In this document: positions 10,557-63,031 of the stretch, piece by piece | Numbering within the stretch: the first letter of the stretch is position 1 | Layout of the letters: the number at the start of each line of letters is the position of its first letter | IMG/VR virus record: IMGVR_UViG_3300047476_002078 | Span: 42,802-106,801 of that record | Direction: 5' to 3' (one strand) | Length of the DNA stretch: 64,000 nucleotides | From: a virus | The notes under the pieces: generated by a model | Databases searched by the model: none | The model's input: only the letters and a program-made list of their open reading frames with translations | What the model was told of the DNA's origin: nothing | Position numbers and translations under genes: made by a program

Positions 10557-10802
10557 CTATTGTTCCATGTTGAAAATTTTGCATAATAACGCAAGGTGAA
10601 CAATAACTAAAAGCCTGTTTCCTCTTCGCTCTTTTACTCTTAAAGAACCTAGTTCAGGGTAAGTTGCGTAGTCACTACCAGAACTATAATTCGCAGGAGG
10701 TGGGAGAAGTATAGAAACGATCTCATCTTCATCCCAGTGATCTTTGTTACCGTAAAATACGACGTTATCTTTTATATGTGATTTTAACTCTTCAATAGTC
10801 AT
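10557..10802 (-). CDS. hypothetical protein
   Basis: 81 aa, overlaps next start. Confidence 0.3.
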   Translation of the reverse strand: MTIEELKSHIKDNVVFYGNKDHWDEDEIVSILLPPPANYSSGSDYATYPELGSLRVKERRGNRLLVIVHLALLCKIFNMEQ

Positions 10803-11358
10803 TTTGTTCGCACTTTTTTAACTCTTCTCTGATCTCCATTAAAGCTTCACCTAAAAGATTTTGACCGAAACCAACATTACCTAATTTTCCTGTTCCCCAC
10901 ACTAGATCATACGGGTTATCAGAATAAATTAAGCGATCTTTTGTAGAAAGAAGGAGATTTTTCATTTCTTCTTCTCTGAATTTTACTCTTAGTGCTTTTA
11001 ACATGATACTATATTTTATACTGTCCCAATCTTCTCTAATGTTTATTTTTGAAGCCATCTTTTTTGCATCTTTTGGATTTGGTGCAAATCGGATGGTTTC
11101 TTGTTCAAAAAAATTTTCTGATTTCATTGCTTGAAAATAATGCTCAACTGTTTGCCAATCCCTTCCATCTATTTCTAATGGAGTTAAAGCGTAGTTAGAC
11201 AACATTGAATATTTTTGATTACTAAAAAAGAAAATAGGAATCGTTGGATTATCTGCACTAATATCGTTATCAAAAATTATGTTAGATTTAGCTTCTTTTA
11301 AGTTCCAGTTTGTTATATGGAGGTTACGGTTAGGATTTAATCTAAAAAGTCCACTCAT
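10792..11358 (-). CDS. NADAR (YbiA-like, DUF1768) domain protein
   Basis: FFFSNQ...YSMLSNY...WQTVEHYFQAMK signature. Confidence 0.6.
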   Translation of the reverse strand: MSGLFRLNPNRNLHITNWNLKEAKSNIIFDNDISADNPTIPIFFFSNQKYSMLSNYALTPLEIDGRDWQTVEHYFQAMKSENFFEQETIRFAPNPKDAKKMASKINIREDWDSIKYSIMLKALRVKFREEEMKNLLLSTKDRLIYSDNPYDLVWGTGKLGNVGFGQNLLGEALMEIREELKKCEQNDY

Positions 11359-11425
11359 AAAAACCCTCTCAAGTGAATTTACCTATTAAATATAAAATAA
11401 AAGTTAGTTATCTTCTTATATTTTT

Positions 11426-12025
11426 CTATTCAATAGACTTATCTGAATCCCAAACGACTTTTACGTTTTCTGCTAAATATAAACCTGTAGGACTTATGTA
11501 AGGTCTTCCTAATCCTGCCAAATCTGTAAGATCAATTTTGAGTCTTTTTTCAAAATCAGAAAGATAAATTAACTCTGAACAATACAAGGCAGAAACACCT
11601 ATTTTAAAGGAAGTGTCATACTTAGAGCCTTCAAAAGATTGACATTTTTCTACCATTTTATTTATGTAATCTTCATCAAAATCAACACATTCTAATATAA
11701 CAACTCGGTCGCTTTCTTTGCACATATCAAAGAAAAAAGATTTGGTGTAATCCGAATGGGTCATTTCTGCTATTTCGTAATTGTCTGGATATAAACCTAT
11801 GCAAAATCCTGCATGTGAGAACTCGCCCGGAATTAGAAAAGTTGTGAGCTTATTCTTATCAATGGATAAGATTATATGCCCCTTTTTTAAAAGTTTGTAA
11901 CCTTCGTGATACTTTCGACCTCGTAAAGAAGTGTAATAGGTTGTAAATCTAATGTAAGGAACGAATTTTTTAAGAAGCCATTTATACGGTTTTGTTTCCA
12001 TTAACCAAAAGATAATTTTTTTCAT
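11426..12025 (-). CDS. permuted papain-fold amidase (YaeF/YiiX C92 / LRAT-like)
   Basis: HAGFCIG His then distal YCSELI Cys motif. Confidence 0.45.
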   Translation of the reverse strand: MKKIIFWLMETKPYKWLLKKFVPYIRFTTYYTSLRGRKYHEGYKLLKKGHIILSIDKNKLTTFLIPGEFSHAGFCIGLYPDNYEIAEMTHSDYTKSFFFDMCKESDRVVILECVDFDEDYINKMVEKCQSFEGSKYDTSFKIGVSALYCSELIYLSDFEKRLKIDLTDLAGLGRPYISPTGLYLAENVKVVWDSDKSIE

Positions 12026-12076
12026 TATTTATACCCTCTATAAGGTAGAAATAATGAAACTTTATGACGCATAGCA

Positions 12077-12108
12077 AAAGTGAGAGGGTTTAACCTCTCA
12101 CTTTTTCA
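12077..12108. terminator. hairpin terminator
   Basis: AGTGAGAGG-gtttaa-CCTCTCACT followed by TTTT. Confidence 0.4.
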
Positions 12109-12245
12109 ATTATTTCTTTTACGGCTGAAACAAGATCAGGAATATCCAAAATAAATATCCAGACTCCAAGAATACCGACAGAGTAAAGATAATATGAGGC
12201 AGAAAAACATGATGATAAATCTGATAGTTCTTTTATAAGAGAATA

Positions 12246-12695
12246 TCAGTTCCATTTGTCTCTTCTGTAGTTGCCTCTATCTCCTCGATCACGTCTGTTA
12301 CCTCTGTTTTCGATGTCATATTTCGTGAATCCTGCATCATTTGTGAAAGGGCGTTCCTCACGATTAAAAGACCTTTCTTCACGATTAAAAGACTTTTCTC
12401 TAGGGGCATACGAGGTTCTTTCAGTACGAGGTCTATCCCCTCTAGGTGCTTGAGGTTGAGCTTCTTTTACAACTAGGGTTCTTCCGCTTAGTTCTCCACC
12501 ATTTAATTCCTGAATAGCTTTCTTACCGTCTTCTTCATTTTCCATCTCTACAAAAGCAAAACCTTTAGATTTTCCTGTTTCTCTATCGGTAATCACTCTT
12601 GCATCAACAACTTTTCCAATCTCAGAAAAAGTCATTTTAAGATCATTTGAGGTTACAGTGTAGGGTAGATTAGCTACGTAAATTTTCTTAGACAT
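12246..12695 (-). CDS. RRM-domain RNA-binding protein with RG/REER-repeat tail
   Basis: RNP2 IYVANL, RNP1 KGFAFVEM; C-terminal REERSFN x3 and RG/RD repeats. Confidence 0.7.
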   Translation of the reverse strand: MSKKIYVANLPYTVTSNDLKMTFSEIGKVVDARVITDRETGKSKGFAFVEMENEEDGKKAIQELNGGELSGRTLVVKEAQPQAPRGDRPRTERTSYAPREKSFNREERSFNREERPFTNDAGFTKYDIENRGNRRDRGDRGNYRRDKWN

Positions 12696-12704
12696 AAAGT
12701 CTCC

Positions 12705-13715: not shown

Positions 13716-13720
13716 AAAAA

Positions 13721-13797
13721 TGGAGCGGGCGAAGGGGTTTGAACCCTCGACATCCAGATTGGAAATCTGGCACTCTACCAACTGAGCTACGCCCGCA
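13721..13797 (-). tRNA. tRNA-Gly (anticodon UCC)
   Basis: Reverse complement GCGGGCGTAGCTCAGTTGGTAGAG...GGTTCAAACCC...CGCCCGCTCCA; anticodon loop TTTCCAA. Confidence 0.8.
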
Positions 13798-13818
13798 TGG
13801 TTTTATTATAGAAAAAAT

Positions 13819-27907: not shown

Positions 27908-27994
27908 TGGTGGCTCTGACCAGACTCGAACTGGTACGCCCTTACGGACACTCGATTTTAAATCGAGGTTGTCTACCGATTCCAACACAGAGCC
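27908..27994 (-). tRNA. tRNA-Leu (anticodon UAA)
   Basis: 87 nt with long variable arm, anticodon loop TTTAAAA, CCA encoded. Confidence 0.75.
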
Positions 27995-28018
27995 AATTCA
28001 CGACTATAATAAATATGA

Positions 28019-28095
28019 TGGTGGGACTGGCAGGACTTGAACCTGCAACCCTCCGGTTATGAGCCGGACGCTCTGACCAATTGAACTACAATCCC
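28019..28095 (-). tRNA. tRNA-Met (anticodon CAU; could be Ile2 or initiator)
   Basis: GGGATTGTAGTTCAATTGGTCAGAGC...CTCATAA...GGTTCAAGTCC...CAGTCCCACCA. Confidence 0.75.
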
Positions 28096-29369: not shown

Positions 29370-29444
29370 AGGGGTATCGACAAGTGGTAAGTCAGCAGAT
29401 TTTGATTCTGCCATACGCAGGTTCGACCCCTGCTACCCCTACCA
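29370..29444 (+). tRNA. tRNA-Gln (anticodon UUG)
   Basis: AGGGGTA acceptor pairs TACCCCT, anticodon stem GCAGA/TCTGC loop TTTTGAT, TTCGACC T-loop, CCA encoded. Confidence 0.75.
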
Positions 29445-33126: not shown

Positions 33127-33945
33127 ATGTGTATGAAAATTGTTTGGGGAATGTTGAAATCATTGGAAGAATATCAAAGACTCGCAAAAAGGTTTGATTC
33201 TAAAATCCAAGAATTAACAAATGGTGAGGTTGGGGTTGAGATCAAGTTGTTTGATAAAGACCCTAGCAACCCTTTAAAAGATATTGAAAAAGGGTCGCTA
33301 GATTTATACCAAGTTACGACTCCTCATTTAAGAATGTTATTAGAGGAGCATAGTTGGTTAAAATGTTGGGAAGTCCCATTTCTGTTTACAAGTGAAGAAC
33401 ATTTGGAACGGTACATAGGTAGTGAATACACACAGCAAAAATTAAAATCTTTGGAAACAAATACAATACTCCCTCTTACTTATTCGTATGCAGGAGGTTT
33501 TTGTGGAATAGTTTCTAAGAGAAATGAAATAAATCAAAATTACGAGAATTTAAAAACTATTCCATTCACCAATTATGAATATGAAGACATGTCTGTTGAA
33601 GAGTTTATGGAAAACATCTATCAACAACTTCCTTCAAATATTTTAATGTATGAAATTCAAGAACTTTTAAAACTTAAACCTGAAAACAAATTTTTGTTAA
33701 ACATTGATGTTACTAAACATATTGTTGTAGCCAGAATATCAATGATGTCAAAAAAAGCTCTTTCAAGAATTCCATCTCAATACAGAGAGATATTTCTATC
33801 AACTTTAGTAGAATTTCTTAATGATGAGCGAAGAATAATTTACGAAAAAGCTAAGAAAAACGTCGAAGCTTTGAAAAAAGATGAGCATATTGGGTACAAT
33901 TTAGGATTAAATAAAGAAATTTTAGCTATTAAAGCCCATGAGTAA
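33127..33945 (+). CDS. hypothetical protein
   Basis: 272 aa. Confidence 0.45.
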   Translation: MCMKIVWGMLKSLEEYQRLAKRFDSKIQELTNGEVGVEIKLFDKDPSNPLKDIEKGSLDLYQVTTPHLRMLLEEHSWLKCWEVPFLFTSEEHLERYIGSEYTQQKLKSLETNTILPLTYSYAGGFCGIVSKRNEINQNYENLKTIPFTNYEYEDMSVEEFMENIYQQLPSNILMYEIQELLKLKPENKFLLNIDVTKHIVVARISMMSKKALSRIPSQYREIFLSTLVEFLNDERRIIYEKAKKNVEALKKDEHIGYNLGLNKEILAIKAHE

Positions 33946-34809
33946 TTAAAGATATAAATGTTCAAGACTTACCTCTTGAACCATTCCTTTAAAAAAGTGC
34001 TCGATAACTTTAACTGTCCAACCGTTACCAATCATTTTAAAACATTGAGTGTCTGAAACATTCATAACAATCTCTTCTGGGATTGTTTGAAGTTTCTTAC
34101 ACTCACTAACCGTCAACTTTCTAATTTTCTTTCTAAGTTCCTTTAACGGTAAACTCTGAGCTTCTTCTTTAGTTCCTTTGAACACTGAAGGCAAAGAACC
34201 TCCTCCACTATTTGCTCTCAAAGTAGGACTTTTTGTATCAAAAACTCTGCATTTATTTTCATTAAATCCGCCGTAGATATTATGAACGAGAATTTCGCCA
34301 GAGGGTAAAACGTCTTTAAGTGTAATATTTTCTGGTGTGATAAGTCCGAAAGGGATGTTTGTCCAATAAAGTCTATTTCTACTTTGAGCGGATAATACTT
34401 CCGAATTAATTTTAATAGGCTTAACTCCCATATATTGAGTGATAATATCTTCAAATTCTTTTTTCATGACCACATTTTCGAGAAGAAACCACTTAGGTTT
34501 AACAGCCTCTAATAAACGAACATAGTCAAAAAAGAGCTTACTTTGAGGGTCTTTAAAGTTTAATTGTTTACCTGCTAAAGAAAATCCAGTACAAGGTGAG
34601 CCTCCAATTAATAAATCAATTTTCGGTAACTTAGATGTATCAATTTTTGACACATCTCCTAAATGAATCATATTTGGAAAATTCTCGGAACTAACTTTTA
34701 TTGCGTGAGGGTCAATCTCAGAGGCGTAGTAGTTATCAACCTTTATATTCAAATTTTTTAGAGCGATCTGTCCACAACTCATTCCATCGAAAAGACTCAA
34801 CACGTTCAT
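33946..34809 (-). CDS. DNA (cytosine-5)-methyltransferase (paralog 1)
   Basis: Motif I LSLFDGMSCGQ, motif IV GGSPCTGFS, motif VI LLENV, motif X GNGWTVKV. Confidence 0.7.
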   Translation of the reverse strand: MNVLSLFDGMSCGQIALKNLNIKVDNYYASEIDPHAIKVSSENFPNMIHLGDVSKIDTSKLPKIDLLIGGSPCTGFSLAGKQLNFKDPQSKLFFDYVRLLEAVKPKWFLLENVVMKKEFEDIITQYMGVKPIKINSEVLSAQSRNRLYWTNIPFGLITPENITLKDVLPSGEILVHNIYGGFNENKCRVFDTKSPTLRANSGGGSLPSVFKGTKEEAQSLPLKELRKKIRKLTVSECKKLQTIPEEIVMNVSDTQCFKMIGNGWTVKVIEHFFKGMVQEVSLEHLYL

Positions 34810-35681: not shown

Positions 35682-36071
35682 ATGAAAAATGAAGAACTTG
35701 TTAAAACTGCATGTGAAAATCTTAATTTTATGTCAAAACAAGTACACCAAAATAATGTGGACGCTGGCTGGTGGACTGATCTAACTACAGGTGAAAAGAA
35801 AGATAGAAACGTAGGCGAGCTTTTATGCTTAGTACACTCTGAAATTTCAGAAGCTATGGAAGGTCACAGAAAAAATTTAGCGGATGACAAACTACCTCAC
35901 CGATCTATGTTTGAAGTGGAATTAGCAGATGCTATCATTCGCATTTTTGATATTGCAGGGGCACACAACTTGGACTTAGGTGGAGCTATTTTTGAAAAAA
36001 TGCAATACAATGCTAAGAGAGAAGACCATACTCTTGCACACAGAATGAGTGAGAATGGAAAAAAATACTAA
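35682..36071 (+). CDS. MazG-like nucleoside triphosphate pyrophosphohydrolase
   Basis: LVHSEISEAMEG and ELADAIIRIFD (EExxE/D metal-binding helices). Confidence 0.6.
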   Translation: MKNEELVKTACENLNFMSKQVHQNNVDAGWWTDLTTGEKKDRNVGELLCLVHSEISEAMEGHRKNLADDKLPHRSMFEVELADAIIRIFDIAGAHNLDLGGAIFEKMQYNAKREDHTLAHRMSENGKKY

Positions 36072-36341: not shown

Positions 36342-36644
36342 ATGAACTTTGTTGAATATGGTCTTCGATACCTTGGAACTGAAGTAGAGGAAATAGTCGG
36401 AGCAAACCCGTGTGAAAATTCAGGTGCGGGATTTGAGAATGATGTTTTCTCATTGAGAGCTTTTTGTTGGTGTAGTGGAGACATAAAAGAGCATGAAGAA
36501 GGATGCCCTCCAAACTTCTTACACAAAAAAACTGGGTTCAGTGTCGAATGGTACAAATATCTTGGTAGATCAACGGAACACTCAGAAATATCACAGAAAG
36601 AATTTAGAAAAATAATTGCTGAGTGTTTAGAGTCCTTACAATGA
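36342..36644 (+). CDS. hypothetical protein
   Basis: 100 aa, Cys/His-containing. Confidence 0.35.
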   Translation: MNFVEYGLRYLGTEVEEIVGANPCENSGAGFENDVFSLRAFCWCSGDIKEHEEGCPPNFLHKKTGFSVEWYKYLGRSTEHSEISQKEFRKIIAECLESLQ

Positions 36645-38018: not shown

Positions 38019-38957
38019 ATGAACGTGCTGTCACTATTCGATGGAATATCCTGTGGGCAAATAGCTCTTAACAGAGCAAAAATTAAATATAAAAATTATT
38101 TTGCTTCTGAAATTGATAAAAACGCTATTAATGTTACTCAGCACAACTACCCAGACACTATTCAGTTGGGGGATGTGACTAAAATTAATTTTAAATCTTT
38201 GCCAAAAATACATCTTTTGATAGGGGGTTCTCCATGTCAAGGATTCAGCATAAGTGGAAAACAACTCGCTTTCAATGACCCTCGAAGTAAACTATTTTTT
38301 GAATTTATAAAGGCTATAAAAGAACTACAGCCGAAATATTTTTTTCTTGAAAATGTTAAAATGAAAAAAGAATATGAAAATATCATAACAGAATTTTTAG
38401 GTGTAAATCCGATAGAAATAAATTCTGCCTTGGTTTCTGCTCAAAATAGAAAAAGACTTTATTGGACTAATATTCCAAACATAACTCAGCCACAAGACAA
38501 ACACATTTTTCTTCGTGATATTTTAGAAAAAGATGTAACCGATAACCTATTCGCCATTCCTGATAAATATTGGAAAGGGACTAATATCGAAAATTATATA
38601 GCTCAATCAGAAAAACCTGTAGCTTTAACTGAAAGAAGAACAGAAGAAGCAAAAAGAATTAGGAAAGAATATCAGAAAAAATATGGAAGAGACTTTTGCC
38701 CTCGAAGAGGAAAAGAATTAGTAGTCAGAAAAGACGGTAAAATGAATTGTTTGACTTCGACTTATTCAATAAAAGAACACACAGTCATTGATGAAAAAGG
38801 TTTTTACAGAAAACTTACTCCAATAGAATGTGAAAGACTACAAACAGTACCAGATAATTATACAAAAATTTTGTCTAATTCACAAAGATACAAAGCCCTT
38901 GGAAATGGTTGGACGGTAGATGTAATTGCTCACATTTTTAAAGGTATAGAAACATGA
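38019..38957 (+). CDS. DNA (cytosine-5)-methyltransferase (paralog 2)
   Basis: LSLFDGISCGQ, GGSPCQGFS, FFLENV, GNGWTVDV. Confidence 0.7.
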   Translation: MNVLSLFDGISCGQIALNRAKIKYKNYFASEIDKNAINVTQHNYPDTIQLGDVTKINFKSLPKIHLLIGGSPCQGFSISGKQLAFNDPRSKLFFEFIKAIKELQPKYFFLENVKMKKEYENIITEFLGVNPIEINSALVSAQNRKRLYWTNIPNITQPQDKHIFLRDILEKDVTDNLFAIPDKYWKGTNIENYIAQSEKPVALTERRTEEAKRIRKEYQKKYGRDFCPRRGKELVVRKDGKMNCLTSTYSIKEHTVIDEKGFYRKLTPIECERLQTVPDNYTKILSNSQRYKALGNGWTVDVIAHIFKGIET

Positions 38958-40033
38958 ACATTCTTTCTTTATTTGATGGAATGTCTTGTGGGCAGATCGC
39001 TCTTAATAGATTGGGAATCAAATACGAAAACTATTTTGCTTCTGAAATTGATATTTACGCAATTAAAGTCACTCAACATAATTATCCAAAAACAATTCAG
39101 CTTGGCGACATCAATAATTGGAGAAATTGGAACATAGATTTTTCAACTATCGGATTAGTTACAGGTGGATTCCCCTGTCAAGCATGGTCTACGGCAGGAA
39201 AGCAATTAGGTGATAAAGACGAGAGAGGAAAACTATTTTGGGTGATGCTAGAAATTATCAAGCATATAAAAAGTTTGAATCCAAATGTCATTTTTCTACT
39301 TGAAAATGTAAAGATGAAAAAAGACTTTGAAGAATACATAACATTTCATACAGAGCAAGCTCTCGGTAAAGTTGAAAAATATCTCATAAATTCTGCTCTG
39401 GTTTCAGCACAGACTCGTTGGAGATATTATTGGACAAACATTCCAAACGTGACTCAGCCGAAAGACAAGGGAATTACTTGGGGAGATGTTCGAGAACATA
39501 ATGTGGAAGCTGACAAATATTACTACACGGAAAAAGCATTACAGTGGTTAGCGAAAGAGTCACGCAAAAAAAATAAAACTCTCAAAGTTCACACAGATGA
39601 CGAAAAAATGCAAATGCTTGAGGCAAGCCATCACAAGAAATACTCAGCACAGCGTTTCTTTGGCATTGTAGAATCAGCGGAACAGGCTGTAGGAGCGATT
39701 CGTGGGCGTTACCTAGTCAATGGTAAGAGACAAGATGGAGAACAGCTTACGGCAGGTTTAACGACGCAGTATATTGAGTTTCGATATGATGGTAAAACTA
39801 ATACTCTATTTACGGTATCGAAAGACAATGTGGTAGTGCCGTTTACTTTGCCAGACCGAGTGCCTGCTTCGGAATTTTTGTTTCGCTACATTACTCCGGT
39901 TGAATGTGAAAGATTACAGACTGTGCCAGATCAATACTCTAGCGTTGTTAGTGATTCTCAGCGTTATAAGATGTTGGGTAATGGTTGGACTGTCGATGTG
40001 ATATGCCATATTCTTAGTCATGCCAATTTCTAA
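38954..40033 (+). CDS. DNA (cytosine-5)-methyltransferase (paralog 3)
   Basis: LSLFDGMSCGQ, GGFPCQAWS, FLLENV, GNGWTVDV; different variable region. Confidence 0.7.
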   Translation: MNILSLFDGMSCGQIALNRLGIKYENYFASEIDIYAIKVTQHNYPKTIQLGDINNWRNWNIDFSTIGLVTGGFPCQAWSTAGKQLGDKDERGKLFWVMLEIIKHIKSLNPNVIFLLENVKMKKDFEEYITFHTEQALGKVEKYLINSALVSAQTRWRYYWTNIPNVTQPKDKGITWGDVREHNVEADKYYYTEKALQWLAKESRKKNKTLKVHTDDEKMQMLEASHHKKYSAQRFFGIVESAEQAVGAIRGRYLVNGKRQDGEQLTAGLTTQYIEFRYDGKTNTLFTVSKDNVVVPFTLPDRVPASEFLFRYITPVECERLQTVPDQYSSVVSDSQRYKMLGNGWTVDVICHILSHANF

Positions 40034-41440: not shown

Positions 41441-41446
41441 TTTTTA

Positions 41447-41469
41447 AGGCAGTAGGTGAGCCTACTGCC
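41447..41469. other. GC-rich stem-loop
   Basis: GGCAGTAGG-tgagc-CCTACTGCC, 9-bp stem, right after stop codon. Confidence 0.5.
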
Positions 41470-41490
41470 AATAATTTAAAGTCTTCTCAA

Positions 41491-41566
41491 CTACCACACA
41501 GATTCACACCTACCGCACAGATTCACACCTACCACACAGATTCACTTCTACCACACGGATTCACAT
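41491..41566. repeat. 4 x 19-bp tandem repeat CTACCACACAGATTCACAC
   Basis: Four head-to-tail copies with 1-2 substitutions, followed by ATGCCACTTGCC x2. Confidence 0.7.
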
Positions 41567-41993
41567 GCCACTTGCCACACGCCCCATGCCACTTGCCCCC
41601 ATTACCATCCCATACCCATGAAGATGCCCTTGCCAAGTGCAACGGAAGCCAAACGTACAGGTAAGCGTACAGGTCAAAATCAAGGGCAGGGAAACGGTTC
41701 AACTGGAAACTGTGAACCGTGCGGAAGTCCAAAAAGTCGGTTTTACCCTAAAGCCCTTAAACACGGTTAAACAGGCTTTACTCATCTTAAACAGATCATG
41801 GCAAACATAAGCACCGAACACCGCACGAGATAACGTGGCACGACAACCGAAAAACGGCTTTTACCCTAAAAGCAACAGGAGGTAAGTGCGGTTTTACGGT
41901 GAAATGCCAAAGATATAATGACAAAGGCTTTACGGTTAAAAATTGCCGTGATAGCGTTTTCGATGAGTGTTAAACCTATGGAGGGGATGAAGA

Positions 41994-42191
41994 GTGTACG
42001 AACTACAAAAATATAAGTGGTGGGAACTTTGGTTCTATAAATATAAGTTTGTCCGGAAATTGAGCGGTGCATTTTGGGTGCGACTTTTGGAAGATGGTTA
42101 TGATTGGGTGAAATTTGATAAAGAAAAATTTTATTCAATGAGTTTTAAGCCGACGACGAAGTTTGAGGTTGAGGACTGGACGGCGAAATGA
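41994..42191 (+). CDS. hypothetical protein (GC-richer island)
   Basis: 65 aa, W-rich. Confidence 0.35.
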   Translation: MYELQKYKWWELWFYKYKFVRKLSGAFWVRLLEDGYDWVKFDKEKFYSMSFKPTTKFEVEDWTAK

Positions 42192-44040: not shown

Positions 44041-44101
44041 AGTCTCTCCTTTTCTTCATAACCTTGCTAATTTGCTTATAATAAGCAGAGTTGGGGTTAT
44101 A

Positions 44102-46249
44102 ATGAAAATCGACAAGAAAACACTCTCTGTTTTACAGAAACTAGCAATTACTTATCAAGAGTATAAGAAATTGCATCCTCGTACTAAGAAGACACCCGAT
44201 GACCCTCTTTTTACTTTGGCACAAGACCCAAACAAAAAAGAGTTCAAGGTTAAGCCTAAAGATATTAAAACAGTCATGCCTTCCAAGACACCTACCAAGA
44301 GTGTTCCGCAAAAGACAGACGACCCTGTTGAAAAGTTTCGCCCAAAGCTGGCTCCAAGTGCTTATCAAAAGCAGATGGATTCAAAAGAGCTTTTGAAAAA
44401 CGCTAAGAAAATGTCTTCTGACGATATGGCATGGCATCTTCTTAATTCTAAGATTGGTATGGGTTTTGAGAGTGGGGAACTTCGAGATCAAATGAAGAGT
44501 CATTTTGGTATTGCCAATATGTATGCCATGATGATTTTAAATCCAAATATATCAAAAGAAAGCCGAGACAATATTGCTTCATGGTTGCTCGATAAAGCCG
44601 GAGTATATTTTGTTTCCAGTAAATCTCTTAAAAGATTTCTCGAAGGTTGTGCGAATAAAGGCATTATCTCAAAAGAGATTTGGGAAGAAGAAGCCAATGG
44701 GGATAGTCAGCGTAAGGAAGAGGATGAGATTGCTCAAAATTACACCGCTGACCAACTTAAAAAACTTCCTGCTAAAAAGATTCAAGAGAATTGGAATGAG
44801 ATTTGTCAAAACGAAAATCTTCCGACTTCCATGATTCAAAAGATGTTGGGTGATAAGGATGTGAAGAAAGCCCTTGAGTTCATGAAAAAGGGCTACATAG
44901 AAGATACAGGAGCCATGTCTGGTAAGATTGGTGAGCGTAAAAATAAAATTGGTAAAGCGTTAAAAATTCTTTCTCATAAAAATGTTCCTTTTGAAGCGTT
45001 ACAAGAAGTGTTTGTACCTTCTCTTAAAAAACATCTTTCAACAAATAACTACAAGGCTTACGAAGTCGCTGAATACCTTGCGAGTCATCCTGACATAAAC
45101 AAGCCAGAGAACAGTGAGCTAAAAAAGTTAGTGCTTCAGGCTTATAAGACTCAGCTTAAATACTACAAAGACGACCCAGAATATGTGGAAGACCCTTACA
45201 AGTCTCAACGTAACTTTGATGAGCTAAAGCACCCTTCCGCTCCCCCTGCTAACTTAAAGCTGTCGAAGGAAGAGTTCTTAGCAATTTGGAAGATTAGAGA
45301 TGAAGGTCCATATAAGTCTCAAAATGAAAGATGGTTTGAGCATCCTGATATGCCAGATGAGATTATCAAAGAGAGTTTGACTAAAAAAGATAATAAAGTA
45401 AAAGACCCTCTTGATAAATATCTTAGTGACTATTCGGAAGTTCGGAAACTCGCTTTTCATCAAGCTCGAAAAAGAAATCTCTTATCAGATGACGACTTAA
45501 TCAAAACTGTAAAAGCTAATTTGAATCTGCATGGCAATGACAATGAACTTATGAAAAAGTTCGCTGAACAAGCTTACACTTATGGAAAAAGCACTAATGA
45601 TATACCTCGTTATATTTCTAAGGGAAGTGATGAGGAACGCAAAGCTGTAGAAGAACAGATGAAAAAGTCAGCTTTCCATGAAGAGTTTGATTTTGAAGTC
45701 TCCGCAGTTTACAACATTGATAAAGAGCCACACAAAGATTTCGCAAAAACTTCTAAGAAACTTGGAAATGTAATGGAAGGTGTTTACCATGGTACAAGCT
45801 ATGCAAACGCCGCTGGGATTCTTTCAGATGGGGTTAGAGTTGATACCGAAGAAAGAACAGGTTCTATGTTCGGTAGGGGTTTTTATCTAGCTTCTGCTTC
45901 TTCTAAAGCTGCCCAATATGCTGGAGAAAAATTTAGTCAGCATGATGGAGATGGGGTAGTCTTTATGCTGAATGTCGCTCTTGGTAAATCCAAAGAAATG
46001 AAATATGGCAGACCCGAAGGAGATAATCTAAAATATCGTATGTTGAGTCCGGAAGAAAAACAAATGATTGAGGATTACAAAAAGAAAACAGGCAAAGACC
46101 TTGATGATAAGTGGCACTACGACCATGACTCTGTAACTGCTAAGGCAGGGCAGGCTTTAGATTATGATGAGTTTGTGGTGAAAGACCCTTCTCAGCTTCA
46201 GATTAAAAAGATTGTTATTGTGAAGAAGACACCAAAGGCAAAAGTATGA
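44102..46249 (+). CDS. PARP-like ADP-ribosyltransferase (H-Y-E class) with shared N-terminal leader module
   Basis: C-terminal VYHGTS ... GRGFYLASASS ... YDEFVVKDP (His-Tyr-Glu triad); N-terminal YQEYKKLHPRTKKTPDDPLF. Confidence 0.65.
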   Translation: MKIDKKTLSVLQKLAITYQEYKKLHPRTKKTPDDPLFTLAQDPNKKEFKVKPKDIKTVMPSKTPTKSVPQKTDDPVEKFRPKLAPSAYQKQMDSKELLKNAKKMSSDDMAWHLLNSKIGMGFESGELRDQMKSHFGIANMYAMMILNPNISKESRDNIASWLLDKAGVYFVSSKSLKRFLEGCANKGIISKEIWEEEANGDSQRKEEDEIAQNYTADQLKKLPAKKIQENWNEICQNENLPTSMIQKMLGDKDVKKALEFMKKGYIEDTGAMSGKIGERKNKIGKALKILSHKNVPFEALQEVFVPSLKKHLSTNNYKAYEVAEYLASHPDINKPENSELKKLVLQAYKTQLKYYKDDPEYVEDPYKSQRNFDELKHPSAPPANLKLSKEEFLAIWKIRDEGPYKSQNERWFEHPDMPDEIIKESLTKKDNKVKDPLDKYLSDYSEVRKLAFHQARKRNLLSDDDLIKTVKANLNLHGNDNELMKKFAEQAYTYGKSTNDIPRYISKGSDEERKAVEEQMKKSAFHEEFDFEVSAVYNIDKEPHKDFAKTSKKLGNVMEGVYHGTSYANAAGILSDGVRVDTEERTGSMFGRGFYLASASSKAAQYAGEKFSQHDGDGVVFMLNVALGKSKEMKYGRPEGDNLKYRMLSPEEKQMIEDYKKKTGKDLDDKWHYDHDSVTAKAGQALDYDEFVVKDPSQLQIKKIVIVKKTPKAKV

Positions 46250-46474: not shown

Positions 46475-47104
46475 ATGAAAAAAATAGTTTCAAGCCTTCA
46501 TAAAATTGCGTCAGATTTAGAAAAAACTGCTTTAGATTACAATGAGTATAAAAAGCTACACCCGAACACAAAAAAGACACCTTCTGACCCGATGTTTAAA
46601 GAAAATAAACCTCAACAGGAGAGTCAGGCTCCCAAACAACAAGCTCCAAATCAACAACCAAAATCTGAGCCTAAACAAGAATCTGCTCCTAAAGTAAAGA
46701 AAACTGTTAGTGATTTTACGGATGCTGAATTAGATGAAATTGGTTTCATGCCGTCTTATAGAAAAAGTTTAAGTGATAAAGAAGTTTTGGAAGAATATAA
46801 CGCTAAAAATAAAGTTGATGAGCTTGTAAAATCTAAAAAATTGAACCTTTCTGATTATCCTGATACTGCCTTTACCTCTATTCTGCAAGATTACAAAGAA
46901 AAACAAAATAAAGGAAAATTAAGTGATGATGATTTTGAACCAGAAAACTTTTATACCGCAGTTAGAAAACATTTAAGCGATAAAGAAGTTACTCCTAAAA
47001 CTGTGAGGGAAGCGATTCGTGTTTATCACCCAGATGCAAAACTCACAAATGACCAAATAAGTTCTGTAATGAATATGTATGAAAAAAAACAAGGTTGGGG
47101 CTAA
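46475..47104 (+). CDS. hypothetical protein with shared N-terminal leader module
   Basis: N-terminal LDYNEYKKLHPNTKKTPSDPMF then Q/P/K low-complexity linker. Confidence 0.5.
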   Translation: MKKIVSSLHKIASDLEKTALDYNEYKKLHPNTKKTPSDPMFKENKPQQESQAPKQQAPNQQPKSEPKQESAPKVKKTVSDFTDAELDEIGFMPSYRKSLSDKEVLEEYNAKNKVDELVKSKKLNLSDYPDTAFTSILQDYKEKQNKGKLSDDDFEPENFYTAVRKHLSDKEVTPKTVREAIRVYHPDAKLTNDQISSVMNMYEKKQGWG

Positions 47105-50740: not shown

Positions 50741-51002
50741 TTTTGAATACAAAGGTTATACTTACTTAAAAGAACTTGATGTAGAACCTGATAACATCAA
50801 AATCTTTCACATGGCTGTAAAAGAAGGTAAAGAAGTACATATAGATTTCAGCCCATACACTGAAATGGATTTTGAAACCTTTCAAATGTTGGTTGATCTT
50901 AATTTTCCAGAAAGGATTGGAGTAAAAACTCCTCATGGGACTTTTTTCTCTCCTTGGAATAAAGATTCTTTGATGAAATTTTGGCTTGAGAGAAAAGTAT
51001 GA
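50733..51002 (+). CDS. hypothetical protein
   Basis: 89 aa. Confidence 0.4.
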   Translation: MDNFEYKGYTYLKELDVEPDNIKIFHMAVKEGKEVHIDFSPYTEMDFETFQMLVDLNFPERIGVKTPHGTFFSPWNKDSLMKFWLERKV

Positions 51003-51400
51003 ATATAACTCCAGAATTAGTAAAAACTCTTGAACCTAATCAGATATTTGTTTTTGGCTCAAACGAAGCTGGCAGGCATGGAGCAGGAGCCGCCAAAAAT
51101 GCGGTTAAGTGGGGAGCTATTTATGGGGTAGGTGAGGGATTAAAAGGTCAAACTTATGCTATACCGACAAAAGATAAAAACATTGAGACGCTAAATCTTG
51201 AAGATATAAATGATTACGTTCTTAATTTTTATAACTTTGCCAAGATAAACCCTGATCTTGATTTTTTAGTTACAGAAATAGGGTGCGGTTTAGCAGGTCT
51301 TACTCCAGAACAAATAGCACCTATGTTTAAAGACACTTCAAAACTGCCGAATGTTTACCTACCTTATAGGTTTTGGAATGTTTTGGTGGAAATGGTATAG
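50999..51400 (+). CDS. Rossmann-like nucleotide-binding protein (possible SLOG/LOG-like)
   Basis: IFVFGSNEAGRHGAGAAKNA glycine-rich loop after beta-strand, second G-rich loop EIGCGLAG. Confidence 0.35.
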   Translation: MNITPELVKTLEPNQIFVFGSNEAGRHGAGAAKNAVKWGAIYGVGEGLKGQTYAIPTKDKNIETLNLEDINDYVLNFYNFAKINPDLDFLVTEIGCGLAGLTPEQIAPMFKDTSKLPNVYLPYRFWNVLVEMV

Positions 51401-52498: not shown

Positions 52499-52575
52499 TG
52501 GCGACCGAGGAGGGACTCGAACCCCCAACCGCTGCCTTAGAAAGACAATGCTCTATCCGGTTGAGCTACTCGGTC
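52499..52575 (-). tRNA. tRNA-Arg (anticodon UCU)
   Basis: GACCGAGTAGCTCAACCGGATAGAGC...anticodon loop TTTCTAA...GGTTCGAGTCC...CTCGGTCGCCA. Confidence 0.7.
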
Positions 52576-52609: not shown

Positions 52610-53431
52610 CTATTTAAAATTTAATTGAACCTGTGAATCTGTCCCATCTTCATGAGCAAAAGTAAAATAATGCTGTTGATGCCATTTTGATTTGATTGCA
52701 TTTGACAGTCTCATTTTAACTTTCCCTGCTTCATCAAAATCAGTAAAAATGTTTTTAAGATGGCTTCCTGCTACGTGCCCTGTGCCCTTCATCTCATCTC
52801 CTGCATATTGTTCCCAGAGAGGCTTTAAATGATTATGCCCTGCGGTAGAGTGGATAACGGAATGTTGTCCATATTTTTTACCAATTGCTTCCAAGTCTTT
52901 TGGAGAAACTTTATTTGTGTGGTGAACCATGAAAACATTTTCATCATTCCCCATGAAGTGCCCTGTACCTCTGTGAAAAACAACGCCCATTTTCTGAAGT
53001 TCTTGCATGAGTTGTTGTGTACGTTTTTTATTTTCTTCGGAATCTGTTTTTTGACCATGTGGGTTTTCTGCGGTTAGTACCGTAAATGAACCGTGGTTTA
53101 AATGATGCTTGAGAAATTTTTTATCTATTGGGGCTGCTCCGGAAATAAAAGGTCGTGCGTTTTCGGAAGTCTTTACTTGCGTTCTTGTTCTCAATTCTTT
53201 GAACTTATCAAAGTCTAATTTTGTATCGGGATGATTCTGCTTAAACATATCGTAAGCAGTATTAATGCTCTCGTCTGATTTAGTCTGTGGTTTATTTTGA
53301 GAAGGTTGAGCAAAAAGAGGGTCATTTGGTCTTTTTTTAGTCAAAGGGTGTAACTTCTTATAGTCTTCATAAGTTATTTTGGCTTTTTTAAGCTTATTTT
53401 CAAGTTCAGAGATTAAGTCAGATACTTTCAT
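52610..53431 (-). CDS. His-rich hypothetical protein with shared N-terminal leader module
   Basis: N-terminal ITYEDYKKLHPLTKKRPNDPLF then Q/P/K linker; many His/Gly in C-terminal region. Confidence 0.5.
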   Translation of the reverse strand: MKVSDLISELENKLKKAKITYEDYKKLHPLTKKRPNDPLFAQPSQNKPQTKSDESINTAYDMFKQNHPDTKLDFDKFKELRTRTQVKTSENARPFISGAAPIDKKFLKHHLNHGSFTVLTAENPHGQKTDSEENKKRTQQLMQELQKMGVVFHRGTGHFMGNDENVFMVHHTNKVSPKDLEAIGKKYGQHSVIHSTAGHNHLKPLWEQYAGDEMKGTGHVAGSHLKNIFTDFDEAGKVKMRLSNAIKSKWHQQHYFTFAHEDGTDSQVQLNFK

Positions 53432-58037: not shown

Positions 58038-58592
58038 ATGATGAACTGTGAACCACAACTAAATGTAGAAGCTAAAGAAATTAGTGTTTATAGAAACGTA
58101 TTACCTGAAAATCTTTGCAAACACTTGATTGAAAAATTGGAAGGAACTGAGTTTTTTCTGCCGACAAATAAAGCAAAATTAAAAGCCGTAAATTTAGAAG
58201 ACTTTCCTGACGATATGTTTGTAGTTAAAAATTTTGTTGAAATTTGTGCTAATAAATATTTGCAGCAATTCGATAAAAAATTATCAAGCGAGCATCTTGT
58301 ATTTGATTCGATGTTTGTGGCTCGTTACAACACTGGAGATGCTTTTCCTGTTCACCACGACTTTCTTAGCGGTAATATCTTTACAGTTATGGTTGTACTT
58401 AATGATGATTATGAAGGCGGAGATTTAATATTTCCGAAACAGCATGTTTCGATAAAAGGTGGAACGGGGGATATAATTATTTTCCCTACTCTTTTTATTT
58501 ATCCTCACGAAGTTACTACGATCACCAAAGGTTGTAGAAATGCAATATTTATACGACTTGGTTACGATACTCAAAAGATGAAATATGGTTAA
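58038..58592 (+). CDS. prolyl-4-hydroxylase-like 2OG-Fe(II) oxygenase
   Basis: FPVHHDF (HxD), distal His in IYPHEV, NAIFIRL. Confidence 0.55.
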   Translation: MMNCEPQLNVEAKEISVYRNVLPENLCKHLIEKLEGTEFFLPTNKAKLKAVNLEDFPDDMFVVKNFVEICANKYLQQFDKKLSSEHLVFDSMFVARYNTGDAFPVHHDFLSGNIFTVMVVLNDDYEGGDLIFPKQHVSIKGGTGDIIIFPTLFIYPHEVTTITKGCRNAIFIRLGYDTQKMKYG

Positions 58593-61042: not shown

Positions 61043-61078
61043 TGAAGACACTATACTTTTAGTTCTCGTAATAACTTA

Positions 61079-61303
61079 TTGCTTAGTCAAAATTATAAAG
61101 GCTTTAAAAGAATGAAAATTACACAAGAAAAAATAGATGAATTTAGGAGAAACTCTGAGGAGCTTTTGATTGCCAAAAGGCAGCTTAAAGAACTTCAAGA
61201 AAGAATACTGCGTATTGAAGAACATCATTTTAATATTGTTGATTCGCTTCTAAACACGATTGAGCAACTACAAAAAGAAAACATAAGGTTGCAAGGAAAC
61301 TAA
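61079..61303 (+). CDS. coiled-coil small protein
   Basis: 74 aa. Confidence 0.35.
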   Translation: MLSQNYKGFKRMKITQEKIDEFRRNSEELLIAKRQLKELQERILRIEEHHFNIVDSLLNTIEQLQKENIRLQGN

Positions 61304-61401
61304 ATTGAAAAACATTTCAAAATGGATGTTTACTATATACTACGTTTTTATGGCTTTGTTTGGTATAAAAATTTTATCTGACATCATACGAGAAAAAATG
61401 T

Positions 61402-61986
61402 TCAGATAAATCCTGCTCTACACATGAGGGTAAACCTACCCTCTTCTGTTGACCTAACTCTGTGGCAAAAAGTAGGATTAGAAGATAACAATACAGCGAT
61501 TTTTCCCATTTTAGGTTCTATTGTTTTATGGGTTTTGGCGGTTGATTCTATACCTTCTCCATTTTCATCTAAATCCCATGTTCCGATCTCTAATTCACCT
61601 TCTTGATTCCATTCCGATAAATATAAACATAGATTTATATGAAAATTTCCAAAGTAGTCGTTGTGCCAATTTAACTCATTTCCTTTTTTATACTTAGCTA
61701 TGGAAATTTCAAAAAAATTAAATTCTCCAAAATTTTTGTGATAAAAACTAAAATCTGGTCTTTTTAAAATTTTTTTCCAAAATGATAAAAGATAAAGATA
61801 CTCAGGGGATTCATCTCCTGCCCAACTTCTACCCATATAAGGTTTGTATTTCTCATCACAAATGTAACCGTTTGTGCCAGAGTAAAATAATTCTACAGTT
61901 GAACAAAATGAGGATATAGAAAATAATAAATTTTCATCTAGTTGTATTTCTTCAAAACCTTGTGAAAATAACTGAGTTAGGTTCAT
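61402..61986 (-). CDS. prolyl-4-hydroxylase-like 2OG-Fe(II) oxygenase
   Basis: WHNDY (HxD), distal CHRVRS His/Arg. Confidence 0.5.
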   Translation of the reverse strand: MNLTQLFSQGFEEIQLDENLLFSISSFCSTVELFYSGTNGYICDEKYKPYMGRSWAGDESPEYLYLLSFWKKILKRPDFSFYHKNFGEFNFFEISIAKYKKGNELNWHNDYFGNFHINLCLYLSEWNQEGELEIGTWDLDENGEGIESTAKTHKTIEPKMGKIAVLLSSNPTFCHRVRSTEEGRFTLMCRAGFI

Positions 61987-62161
61987 TGATTTATTTTAGC
62001 AAATCAAATTTTAAAAAGAAATCATCCATTCACGTTTATAAAATGAAATAACGAGATATTTGCCAAGATTACCTGTGCAAAAAACGATTCCAAATTTGAC
62101 TGATTTTGTTTTAATTTTTAAAACTTCCATAAATAATGGACAATAATAATAAAATAATACT

Positions 62162-62371
62162 ATGCGTTATAGTATGGAAAAAGCATTAATTTTACAACGT
62201 ATTGAAAAAGCTAGAGCCTCTCTAAAAAACAGCTTTATGAAGTATGAGCATAGCTTTGCAAGTTTGGCGATTATGCTTGAAGAAGAACATTACTTTCCAG
62301 AAAAAATAATAAAAGACTTAGAAGAAATAGAAAATTTTATTCTATTTATGAATAAGCTCGAACAATCTTGA
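62162..62371 (+). CDS. hypothetical protein
   Basis: 69 aa. Confidence 0.35.
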   Translation: MRYSMEKALILQRIEKARASLKNSFMKYEHSFASLAIMLEEEHYFPEKIIKDLEEIENFILFMNKLEQS

Positions 62372-62683
62372 TAAAACATCATCTGAAGTGTGCCCATCCC
62401 AAACATGATTAGGGCTGTGTGTAAAATTCTTCTCCGCTAATTCTAAATAAATATTTGGCACATGGTAGCTAATCTGACCTTCTTCTAATTCCAAGTATAT
62501 ACAAAAAAAGTTTTCATAATCTTTTTTGTAGTAAACTTTATCTTTCCATTGCATACAGAGGGCTAGAAAAAGAAAATATCGGTGCTTATAAAGTTCTGTA
62601 AAAGTGTGGTATCCGTCAGAAATGTCATCGTTTACAATTTGAAAAGTCTTTCCCATAATATGATTAGAACTCAACTTTATCAC
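62342..62683 (-). CDS. hypothetical protein
   Basis: 113 aa. Confidence 0.4.
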   Translation of the reverse strand: MIKLSSNHIMGKTFQIVNDDISDGYHTFTELYKHRYFLFLALCMQWKDKVYYKKDYENFFCIYLELEEGQISYHVPNIYLELAEKNFTHSPNHVWDGHTSDDVLSRLFELIHK

Positions 62684-62698
62684 TTTGGAAATTAATTT

Positions 62699-63031
62699 AT
62701 GAAAATAATTGTAACAGGCGGAAGATTTTTTAACGATTACAGTAAAGTTGAAAAAGCTCTTAAAGAATTAAATCCTACTTTTATTATACAAGGCGGAGCG
62801 AGCGGAGCCGATAGACTTGCTATCCGATTCGCTTTAGAAAATAAAATCAAGTATCAAACATATCAGGCAGATTGGAACACTCACAAAAAAGCTGCTGGTC
62901 CCATTAGGAACAGGCTTATGCTATCTAATAATCAGGATGCTCTTGTGGTAGCTTTTGAAGGCGGAAAAGGTACTAAGAATTGTGTTGATACTGCCATATC
63001 TCTTGGTATGAAAGTGGTGGAGATAAATTAA
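62699..63031 (+). CDS. DUF2493 (YAcAr) SLOG-family protein
   Basis: IIVTGGR...IIQGGASGADRLAIRFA...ADWNTHKKAAGPIRNRLM matches DUF2493 signature. Confidence 0.55.
   Translation: MKIIVTGGRFFNDYSKVEKALKELNPTFIIQGGASGADRLAIRFALENKIKYQTYQADWNTHKKAAGPIRNRLMLSNNQDALVVAFEGGKGTKNCVDTAISLGMKVVEIN

Follow-up and report, generated by a model that had tools for sequence, protein, structure and literature searches.

The viral NAD+/ADP-ribose network and phage ADP-ribosyltransferases

[quoted passage not shown] Iyer et al. (2022) give frequencies of 48% for NADAR among medium and jumbo phages and, among jumbo phages, of 56% for Macro and 31% for SLOG, with positive co-occurrence (PMC9503650). With respect to function, AdfN NADARs from three phage groups (T4 gp30.3, Bas32, and Bas60) have been shown experimentally to counter DarTG1 (PMC11825919), and the AdfM macrodomain of a chimallivirus (PhiKZ gp104) to counter DarTG2 (PMC13309987). 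Furthermore, phage ADP-ribosyltransferases (ARTs) are often head packaged, and head-packaged ARTs of the PARP family have been described (PMC7824862, PMC9503650).

The window analyzed here is a stretch of 64,000 nucleotides from the genome of an uncultured phage of very large size (about 355 kb): it carries 5 dispersed tRNAs and ~135 mostly small open reading frames (ORFs) of at least 50 amino acids at a GC content of ~32%, and the longest member of the JGI contig family encoding an identical macrodomain protein measures 355,874 bp. As a first-pass annotation had proposed, several members of the NAD+/ADP-ribose network are encoded in the window, on the strength of family and fold assignments (Table 1). 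The four ORFs named in that annotation each lie at the positions it gives. These are the families of the network of Iyer et al. (PART/PARP ART, Macro, NADAR, and YAcAr SLOG), stand-alone in a large phage, but the genes are fully dispersed, neither fused nor adjacent, and the macrodomain comes from a divergent family missed by the Pfam Macro models. DUF4326, sirtuin, and NAD-salvage genes were not seen within the 64-kb window, and promoter scans did no better than shuffles.

Table 1. Features of the window discussed in the text
Feature	Position	Strand	Basis
NADAR, YbiA clade, 188 aa	10792..11358	-	Pfam PF08719, TIGR02464, PDB YbiA
Peptidase_C92 (YaeF/YiiX permuted papain-like amidase)	11426..12025	-	Pfam PF05708 1.7e-10
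MazG-like all-alpha (d)NTP pyrophosphatase, 129 aa	35682..36071	+	PHROG, PDB profile match
PARP-family ADP-ribosyltransferase, 715 aa (725 aa from TTG at 44072)	44102..46249	+	PF00644
209-aa protein with the PARP's N-terminal module (YNEYKKLHPNTKKTPSDPMF)	46475..47104	+	Regex scan, all window ORFs
Divergent macrodomain protein, A1S_2505 family, 133 aa	50999..51400	+	Fold search, signature motifs
273-aa DUF3293 protein with the PARP's N-terminal module (YEDYKKLHPLTKKRPNDPLF)	52610..53431	-	Pfam 7e-12, regex scan
YAcAr (DUF2493) SLOG-superfamily protein, 110 aa, stand-alone	62699..63031	+	Pfam PF10686

Predicted erasers, PARP-family transferase, and SLOG protein encoded in the window

The NADAR matches Pfam PF08719 over profile positions 2 to 163 of 163 (E = 3.8e-30; 105.7 bits, GA 35.1) and TIGR02464 with 112 bits (curated cutoff, 73.7); among solved structures, E. 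coli YbiA comes nearest (2b3w, E = 1.2e-24; also 8bau, 3.7e-14), and source annotations read “ribA/ribD-fused” or “N-glycosidase YbiA.” Residues E72, K79, W111, D151, and W154, equivalent to the ADP-ribose (ADPr) contacts E43, K50, W89, D130, and W133 of the P. nicotianae NADAR (PMC11543638), are invariant in the alignment and match both 8bau and YbiA. The last strand differs, since the position that holds the charged catalytic residue in the YbiA (Glu), BC4488 (Asp), and phage gp30.3 (His) subfamilies is a Ser in the window NADAR (“LIYSDNP,” with Asp at +1). The loss of conserved catalytic residues, which the first-pass annotation had named as evidence against its proposal, is seen in part, the hallmark catalytic Glu being replaced by Ser. 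Within the clade, Ser recurs in relatives at 96% and 81% identity, Asp is found at 65%, and Glu in all others; viral NADAR homologs mostly have Glu, with D, K, Q, N, or Y also occurring. Active NADARs naturally carry Glu, Asp, or His here (PMC11125620), and D171A/N in the E. coli C7 NADAR causes the loss of efficient activity (PMC11543638). Because Ser occupies the hallmark position in the window NADAR and its two closest relatives, guanine-ADPr hydrolase activity is uncertain.

The proposed family activity, removal of the ADP-ribose that DarT places on guanine, holds for DarT1 (PMC11543638), and guanine-ADPr is hydrolyzed by all tested NADAR subtypes, E. coli YbiA included (PMC11125620). Despite being active in vitro, E. 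coli YbiA and T4 NADAR do not rescue cells from DarT1 toxicity (PMC11125620), indicating that family membership is no guarantee of counter-defense. Like AdfN, the window protein is an orphan phage NADAR that keeps the ADPr-binding residues, and some of its clade relatives also match Pfam Phage_30_3. It differs from AdfN in belonging to the YbiA clade rather than the T4 type, in the Ser found in place of His, Asp, or Glu, in an extra N-terminal extension of ~45 amino acids that is conserved in its lineage, and in that its activity is a prediction. NADAR matches occur in 627 cultured phage records. The Peptidase_C92 gene directly upstream is the only neighbor that is both assigned to a family and conserved in relatives, with the order C92-NADAR-88aa-117aa kept in contigs encoding the 81%-identical NADAR.

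Two SLOG/Rossmann proteins had been claimed, one of which, the YAcAr protein, is indeed SLOG, while the other (50999..51400) is a macrodomain by fold search: it shows the three-layer alpha/beta macro fold, and its listed matches contain macrodomains and no SLOG, LOG, or DprA proteins, so that the SLOG identity is rejected. No Pfam family matches the protein at E ≤ 0.01, the Pfam/NCBIfam Macro sequence models miss it, and its family profile finds macrodomains in the PDB at sub-threshold level only (E = 0.46 to 0.47). It carries a putative DarG/TARG1-like signature (N22, G28-x-G30, P56-T57-K58, and G95-C96-G97-L-A-G), with N22, G28, G30, P56, and G95-C96-G97 invariant and T57 and K58 at least 90% conserved; an HMM alignment scoring below threshold pairs PTK and GCGLxG with the DarG of T. 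africanus. K58 may be equivalent to TARG1 K84 and DarG K80. The protein is thus a macrodomain, probably of the DarG/TARG1 type, which makes the ADP-ribose theme of the window stronger than first supposed. In contrast to AdfM, DarG, and TARG1, its sequence is not significantly similar to that of any solved macrodomain; it belongs to a separate family (NCBIfam A1S_2505) and lacks a DarT-binding domain. This family is very large, with at least 8000 homologs, and A1S_2505-type matches are found in 472 cultured phage records, mainly of N4-like podophages.

The PARP-like writer of the first-pass annotation is confirmed by Pfam PARP PF00644 (E = 4.9e-23; 82.1 bits, GA 26.7), which covers amino acids 522 to 717 of the 725-aa form. 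A shared N-terminal module of ~35 amino acids is followed by a disordered linker, a helical region, and a C-terminal H-Y-E ART domain, the triad of which (H563/Y595/E690) is invariant in 5 PARP orthologs down to 46% identity. The best Foldseek matches are to the PARP1 catalytic domain (E ~2e-7), in a region where the model has low confidence. The protein resembles T4 Alt/ModA/ModB, head-packaged ARTs, and polyvalent injected proteins with LPD domains in being a phage ART with presumed early host targets, and its N-terminal module is also found in an LPD1-domain protein. In contrast to these systems, it belongs to the H-Y-E clade and not to the R-S-E Alt/Mod group, has no MuF or portal fusion, and is only putatively packaged. 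PARP homologs are rare, with matches in 7 of 50,697 cultured phage records.

The YAcAr protein matches PF10686 (formerly DUF2493) over profile positions 1 to 66 of 66 (E = 5.9e-16; 58.5 bits, GA 28.2), as well as phrog_289 (1.6e-23), and carries the Gly-rich G-G-x-x-G-x-D loop (“QGGASGADRLA”); a match to DprA (PF02481) is sub-threshold. Three other contigs with an identical protein have the same local gene order. In the literature, we found no experimentally shown function for any phage YAcAr protein.

The MazG assignment survives at the level of the MazG-like all-alpha superfamily, and its membership in an NAD/ADP-ribose toolkit is rejected, as the nearest characterized relatives are (d)NTP pyrophosphatases and nothing links the protein to NAD. 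PHROG “pyrophosphatase” families match it at E = 4.7e-62, and the best family-profile matches in the PDB are MazZ of cyanophage S-2L (7ody, E = 1e-4) and DCTPP1/RS21-C6 (E = 1.4e-3), which share its ExxE...ExxD metal site (E54, E57, E60, E80, and D83, all invariant). The likeness is nevertheless weak (E = 1e-4 to 1e-3), and Pfam MazG models match neither the window protein nor 27 homologs. The gene sits between three Dcm cytosine methyltransferase genes, and in 144 viral loci we never observe a MazG-like gene beside a NADAR or macro gene.

Gene dispersal and competing explanations

The genes had been described as a unit not previously reported, and neither part of that description holds. Gene starts lie at 10.8 (NADAR), 35.7 (MazG-like), 44.1 (PARP), 51.0 (macro), and 62.7 kb (SLOG) on both strands, the spacing of the ADP-ribose genes being given as 11 to 52 kb, with 33 kb between NADAR and PARP and 5 kb between PARP and macro. 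They are not adjacent and co-oriented as in a single operon or island but fall into separate local gene clusters, and relatives keep only each gene's own local neighbors. In addition, Macro-NADAR-SLOG co-occurrence, fusions, and neighborhoods in jumbo phages and NCLDVs have already been published (PMC7824862, PMC9503650), and we find such neighborhoods again in other viral contigs: a tight operon of YAcAr, a protein with macro-like motifs, and NADAR (L026), a YAcAr gene overlapping NADAR (L024), and an A1S_2505-type macro gene adjoining NADAR (L080). Of 64 viral loci, 7 have a YAcAr gene no farther than 10 kb from NADAR, and linkage outside the window is limited to subsets of SLOG, macro, and NADAR.

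We regard it as rather unlikely that the proteins share no NAD/ADPr purpose and serve separate housekeeping or metabolic functions, with NADAR acting as a YbiA-type N-glycosidase on reactive riboflavin-pathway intermediates, the macrodomain processing ADPr-1''-phosphate or O-acetyl-ADPr in connection with tRNA/RNA repair, the SLOG protein binding nucleotides or ssDNA in the manner of DprA/LOG, and the MazG-like protein cleaning up dNTPs. TIGR02464, the above-cutoff match, is named “riboflavin biosynthesis intermediates N-glycosidase,” in agreement with the source annotations; the sub-threshold DprA match points the same way, the 5 phage tRNAs make RNA-repair by-products plausible, and the lost NADAR Glu could mean an altered substrate. 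However, a Pfam scan covering nearly every ORF of the window turned up no gene for the riboflavin pathway and none for an RNA ligase, KptA/Tpt1, 2H, or Nudix protein, every NADAR subtype tested acts on guanine-ADPr, and the tight SLOG-macro-NADAR operons of other viral contigs argue for related substrates.

An unlikely explanation is a phage-internal circuit in which the PARP is the relevant transferase and its marks are erased by NADAR, the macrodomain, or both as cognate partners, providing self-immunity or a temporal off-switch by protecting phage DNA or proteins or by resetting host targets late, like an ART-antitoxin pair. A myxobacterial YbiA-family NADAR is the antitoxin to YarT, an ART of the H-Y-[EDQ] clade (PMC11125620), which parallels the H-Y-E PARP and YbiA-clade NADAR of the window, and Iyer et al. 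(2021) suggest “toggles” for NAD-utilizing and ADPr-degrading phage domains (PMC7824862). Against this, the three genes lie apart at the distances given above, in different transcription blocks, and a PARP homolog was found within 10 kb of NADAR in none of 64 viral loci and within 3 kb of macro in none of 80. The presence of NADAR and macro in hundreds of cultured phage records, compared with 7 for PARP, further indicates that the erasers function without such a writer.

That the set is degenerating accessory cargo, partly nonfunctional and with at least NADAR a catalytically impaired remnant kept by hitchhiking, would account for the Glu-to-Ser change in a lineage whose 65% sister has Asp and whose distant clade members have Glu, but is very improbable, since the Ser variant is kept together with all five ligand residues at 96% and 81% identity and the lineage gained a conserved extension, indicating purifying selection on a modified function, at a position that is variable in active NADARs and viral homologs alike.

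Probable parallel tools in a large phage

The explanation we favor, and consider reasonably probable, is that these are stand-alone NAD+/ADP-ribose conflict enzymes, scattered among accessory genes and acting in parallel against different NAD-dependent defenses of the host. This reading is supported by the dispersal of the genes, each in its own conserved local order, and PARP, NADAR, macrodomain, and SLOG protein would not form one co-regulated machine. The PARP-family transferase would be a host-takeover writer that ADP-ribosylates host macromolecules, and it probably enters the cell together with the DNA or is produced early. Judging from its family, NADAR may hydrolyze the N-glycosidic ADP-ribose-guanine adducts that DarT1-like host toxins place on phage ssDNA, as AdfN does, a role weakened by the Glu-to-Ser change. 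The macrodomain may remove ADP-ribose from DNA thymidine (DarT2 type, like AdfM), with acidic protein side chains or ADPr-1''-phosphate as possible alternative substrates, and the YAcAr protein is predicted to bind or cleave NAD-derived signals, e.g., the cADPR isomers of TIR/Thoeris-type defenses. The MazG-like (d)NTP pyrophosphatase would stand outside this set, with a role in the nucleotide pool or in DNA modification.

Given the published frequencies, finding NADAR, Macro, and SLOG in one ~355-kb phage is unremarkable. Large phages typically carry this set of genes, which has been described before, and the window is therefore a new example rather than a new system; within this set only the PARP is rare.

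Gene content of the window

The window is an accessory region of a jumbo phage with a GC content of about 32%. It encodes approximately 135 ORFs of 50 aa or more, most of them small (146 when the minimum is 40 aa), and five tRNA genes that are dispersed singly or as a pair and not gathered in one cluster. A Pfam scan that took in essentially all window ORFs recovered a SNF2 helicase, an ATP-dependent ligase, a flap endonuclease, an RNase T-like exonuclease, three Dcm C5-methyltransferases and four to five 2OG-Fe(II) oxygenases, as well as Hsp20, MgtC, SPFH and RRM proteins. A megablast comparison of 8 kb of the window with 50,697 cultured phage records returned no match and hence no near-identical relative. 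A protein identical to the one encoded at 50999-51400 is present on JGI metagenome contigs, the longest being 355,874 bp, and local gene orders of the window were found again on other metagenome contigs.

Positions of the features discussed, in nucleotides of the window
Feature	Position	Strand	Remarks
2OG-Fe(II) oxygenase superfamily	6260-6916		
NADAR	10792-11358	-	
Peptidase_C92 (YaeF/YiiX permuted papain-like amidase)	11426-12025	-	directly upstream of NADAR
Bacterial-type RRM RNA-binding protein	12246-12695	-	PF00076, E=1.1e-24; Arg/Gly/Asn-rich tail
tRNAs Gly-TCC, Leu-TAA, Met-CAT, Gln-TTG, Arg-TCT	13721-13796, 27908-28095, 29370-29444, 52499-52575		
272-aa protein	33127-33945	+	partial DctP match (TRAP-transporter solute-binding family 7), E=3.6e-13, profile positions 14-130 only
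Dcm C5-cytosine methyltransferase	33946-34809	-	
MazG-like protein	35682-36071	+	
2OG-Fe(II) oxygenase superfamily	36623-37054		
Dcm C5-cytosine methyltransferase	38019-38957	+	
Dcm C5-cytosine methyltransferase	38954-40033	+	
Stretch without convincing ORF	41441-42190		about 750 bp; GC about 39%
19-bp tandem repeat	41491-41565		3.9 copies of CTACCACACAGATTCACAC
PARP-like protein	44102-46249	+	715 aa (725 aa from upstream TTG)
N-terminal module in PARP	44102-44220		
N-terminal module in 209-aa protein (46475-47104)	46475-46600		
Predicted macrodomain, A1S_2505 family	50999-51400	+	133 aa
N-terminal module in DUF3293 protein (52610-53431)	53431-53310	-	
2OG-Fe(II) oxygenase superfamily	58038-58592		
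2OG-Fe(II) oxygenase superfamily	61402-61986	-	
YAcAr SLOG protein	62699-63031	+	
IMPDH/GMP-reductase	63434-64000	-	cut by right window end; 343 aa in identical contigs L071-L073

Several of these features stand apart from the ADP-ribose theme. The 2OG-Fe(II) oxygenase superfamily is represented by at least four separate, scattered genes, unusually many for 64 kb, and the DctP-like match is unexpected for a phage. The stretch without a convincing ORF, whose GC content is higher than that of the window, begins after a hairpin and carries the 19-bp tandem repeat followed by a 7-bp repeat; these repeats could be iterons or an origin, or else a regulatory array, and an Rfam search of the non-coding 41.3-43.2 kb at a permissive threshold gave no match.

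ADP-ribose-related proteins and the MazG-like enzyme

The four ORFs named in the first-pass annotation all translate as given there. The YAcAr/DUF2493 assignment is solid (PF10686, E=5.9e-16, full-length). Pattern scans of IMG/VR for its close relatives returned nothing. The gene is adjoined by a nucleotide-metabolism gene, the IMPDH/GMP-reductase, next to which, past the window end, contigs L071-L073 encode a 320-aa unknown and a YqcI_YcgG protein. The NADAR and PARP-like calls are confirmed too. The NADAR matches PF08719 (E=3.8e-30) and scores over the curated cutoff of TIGR02464, with E. coli YbiA as the nearest solved structure (E=1.2e-24) and a Phytophthora NADAR (8bau) as the next.

At the hallmark charged position on the last strand, YbiA-family members have Glu, DarT1-linked NADARs Asp and T4-type NADARs His, and the D171A/N substitutions in E. 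coli C7 NADAR abolish efficient activity (PMC11543638, PMC11125620). Compared with YbiA and 8bau, with 54 viral homologues and with the 21 closest database homologues, the window NADAR retains E72, K79, W111, D151 and W154 throughout, and carries Ser at the hallmark position ("LIYSDNP" versus the clade consensus "IYEDSP"). Loss of catalytic residues, which the first-pass annotation had said would count against its reading, is therefore found in part. The Ser is common to relatives at 96% and 81% identity, a 65% relative has Asp, and an N-terminal extension of about 45 aa marks the lineage. Partial decay of the NADAR would account for the Ser, but the conservation of all else suggests a modified enzyme rather than a dead one. 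Relatives with a NADAR of 81% identity keep its pairing with the Peptidase_C92 gene. Two genes upstream of NADAR lies the RRM gene, which some relatives have and others lack.

The protein at 50999-51400, taken at first for a second SLOG/Rossmann protein, does contain the motif FVFGSNEAGRHGAGAA, yet its fold is that of a macrodomain as predicted by AlphaFold2 (40-sequence alignment; pLDDT 92.3, pTM 0.88). The structures matched by the model include the PARP9 and PARP14 macrodomains, and no SLOG, LOG or DprA structure is among the matches listed. It has no Pfam match, and is recognized by the NCBIfam model "A1S_2505 family phage non-structural protein" (2.2e-42). Residues that are invariant or, for T57 and K58, at least 90% conserved in this family (N22, G28-x-G30, P56-T57-K58 and G95-C96-G97-L-A-G) appear to take the places that the Asn, GxG phosphate loop, "[IP]TK" lysine and "GCGLxG" loop have in DarG/TARG1-class macrodomains, and a profile alignment, sub-threshold as a match, lined up PTK...GCGLGG with T. 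africanus DarG. K58 may correspond to TARG1 K84 and DarG K80. Read as a DarG/TARG1-like macrodomain, the protein is therefore a candidate for hydrolysing ADP-ribosyl bonds or for countering DarTG2. At least 8000 homologues at about 60% identity make this a very large family, which occurs in 472 cultured-phage records, mainly of N4-like podophages; a few depositors have already labelled members "ADP-ribosylglycohydrolase".

The PARP-like protein matches PF00644 (E=4.9e-23), and five orthologues, the most distant at 46% identity, all retain its H-Y-E triad. An AlphaFold2 model of the full protein from six sequences has a mean pLDDT of 70 with a poorly modelled ART domain; its Foldseek matches, to the PARP1 catalytic domain, reflect only the PARP domain, and the N-terminal 520 aa received no fold assignment. 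A pattern scan of IMG/VR for the PARP found nothing. The protein starts with a module of about 35 aa (KLAIT-x-EYKKLHP-x-TKK-x-P-x-DP-[LM]-F) that is invariant in all PARP orthologues and is followed by a disordered linker in the model. The same module opens a 209-aa protein and a DUF3293 protein, the C-termini of the three being unrelated, and no further window ORF carries it. It also begins an otherwise unrelated 631-aa protein of another contig (P0307) that has an LPD1 "large polyvalent protein-associated" domain. The module may be a shared targeting, packaging or localization tag. For the DUF3293 protein, a phmmer search of the PDB gave only myoglobin matches, which we judged spurious.

The MazG call stands as to ORF and superfamily and falls as to membership in an NAD-related set. 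Neither the protein nor 27 homologues match Pfam. The protein is recognized by PHROG "pyrophosphatase" families (E=4.7e-62), and its own family (8400 cluster representatives) has an invariant metal motif (E54/E57/E60...E80/D83) and matches MazZ (E=1e-4) and DCTPP1/RS21-C6 (E=1.4e-3) in profile comparison, which therefore makes it a MazG-like all-alpha (d)NTP pyrophosphatase. We rejected it from the NAD set since its nearest characterized relatives are (d)NTP pyrophosphatases and no homologue occurs in 144 neighbourhoods centred on NADAR or the macrodomain. The gene is flanked by the three Dcm genes within 6 kb, which suggest that cytosines of the phage genome are heavily methylated, and a nucleotide-pool or DNA-modification role is more plausible for this dCTP/dGTP pyrophosphatase-like enzyme. 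Published surveys discuss MazG-like enzymes in terms of the breakdown of unmodified nucleotides or of a part in RNA repair, and not of NAD metabolism (PMC7824862, PMC9503650).

Linkage among the genes

The five genes do not form a unit within this genome. NADAR lies at 10.8 kb on the minus strand and the MazG-like, PARP, macrodomain and YAcAr genes at 35.7, 44.1, 51.0 and 62.7 kb on the plus strand, with dozens of unrelated ORFs between them, and relatives conserve only each gene's own neighbours: Peptidase_C92 with NADAR, DUF3846 downstream of the macrodomain, and a WDGH protein and IMPDH around YAcAr. Scans for sigma-70 promoters and terminators around the NADAR and macrodomain genes gave counts not above those of shuffles, and PADLOC matched only a candidate-system NADAR model, with no DarG and no Thoeris.

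Co-occurrence was judged from neighbourhood tests together with published statistics. YAcAr lies within 10 kb of NADAR in 7 of 64 NADAR-centred IMG/VR loci. A jumbo-phage contig (L026, 8871-10459) has a tight operon of YAcAr, a 162-aa protein (motifs MGAGFA and GMGCGLAGGNW; no Pfam match) and NADAR, and on another (L024, 9604-10450) YAcAr overlaps NADAR. The 162-aa protein aligned with the A1S_2505 profile only weakly and locally at the GCGLAG motif (hhalign probability 21%), and we therefore call it macro-like by motif only. An A1S_2505-type macrodomain is directly followed by NADAR in one of 80 macrodomain-centred loci (L080, 3001-3874, on a 362.6-kb contig). No PARP homologue occurs in the 144 neighbourhoods, and no contig name common to the 64 NADAR and 80 macrodomain loci listed was seen by eye, in samples too small and too limited to inform.

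Published complement and possible roles

The ADP-ribose theme holds up, yet it amounts to the usual complement already published for jumbo phages, and the genes are not organized as a system here. Surveys of viral NAD/ADP-ribose systems by Iyer et al. (2021, PMC7824862; 2022, PMC9503650) put the share of medium and jumbo phages with NADAR at 48%, and those of jumbo phages with Macro and SLOG at 56% and 31%. [quoted passage not shown] In experiments, NADARs of three phage groups (AdfN) neutralize DarTG1 (PMC11825919), and a chimallivirus DarG2-like macrodomain, AdfM, neutralizes DarTG2 (PMC13309987). Given these surveys and the AdfN and AdfM work, it therefore cannot be maintained that the combination had gone undescribed as a unit. 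Most of the first-pass observation was right; the exceptions are the fold assigned to one protein and the inclusion of one gene, MazG, which lies outside the set.

The four remaining proteins most likely act independently of one another as tools of counter-defence and takeover. In this reading the PARP would be a writer on host targets, NADAR would remove guanine-linked ADP-ribose, the macrodomain would remove thymine-linked or protein-linked ADP-ribose, and YAcAr may bind or cleave NAD-derived signals. One rival is a phage-internal writer-eraser circuit, for which the YarT-YbiA toxin-antitoxin pair is a precedent (PMC11125620). On a bolder reading, the phage has a complete ADP-ribosylation cycle of its own: the previously undescribed module would send the PARP writer and the other proteins that carry it into the virion for injection, and the Ser-bearing NADAR and the DarG-like macrodomain would act as the matching erasers, limiting or undoing the modification; we consider this quite improbable. 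Unrelated housekeeping roles are a further rival to independent counter-defence and takeover. A coupling to RNA repair is rejected, since the Pfam scan found no KptA, 2H or ligase of such a kind in the window.

As a toolkit, the set represents one more uncultured jumbo phage in an already catalogued pattern, and its general impact is small. The module common to a rare phage PARP and other proteins is a possible delivery or localization tag, and the Ser-bearing NADAR lineage is a natural test of the catalytic role of the supposedly essential last-strand Glu. The A1S_2505 family, which lacks a Pfam model and bears only the NCBIfam name "phage non-structural protein", could be annotated as a DarG/TARG1-like macrodomain.
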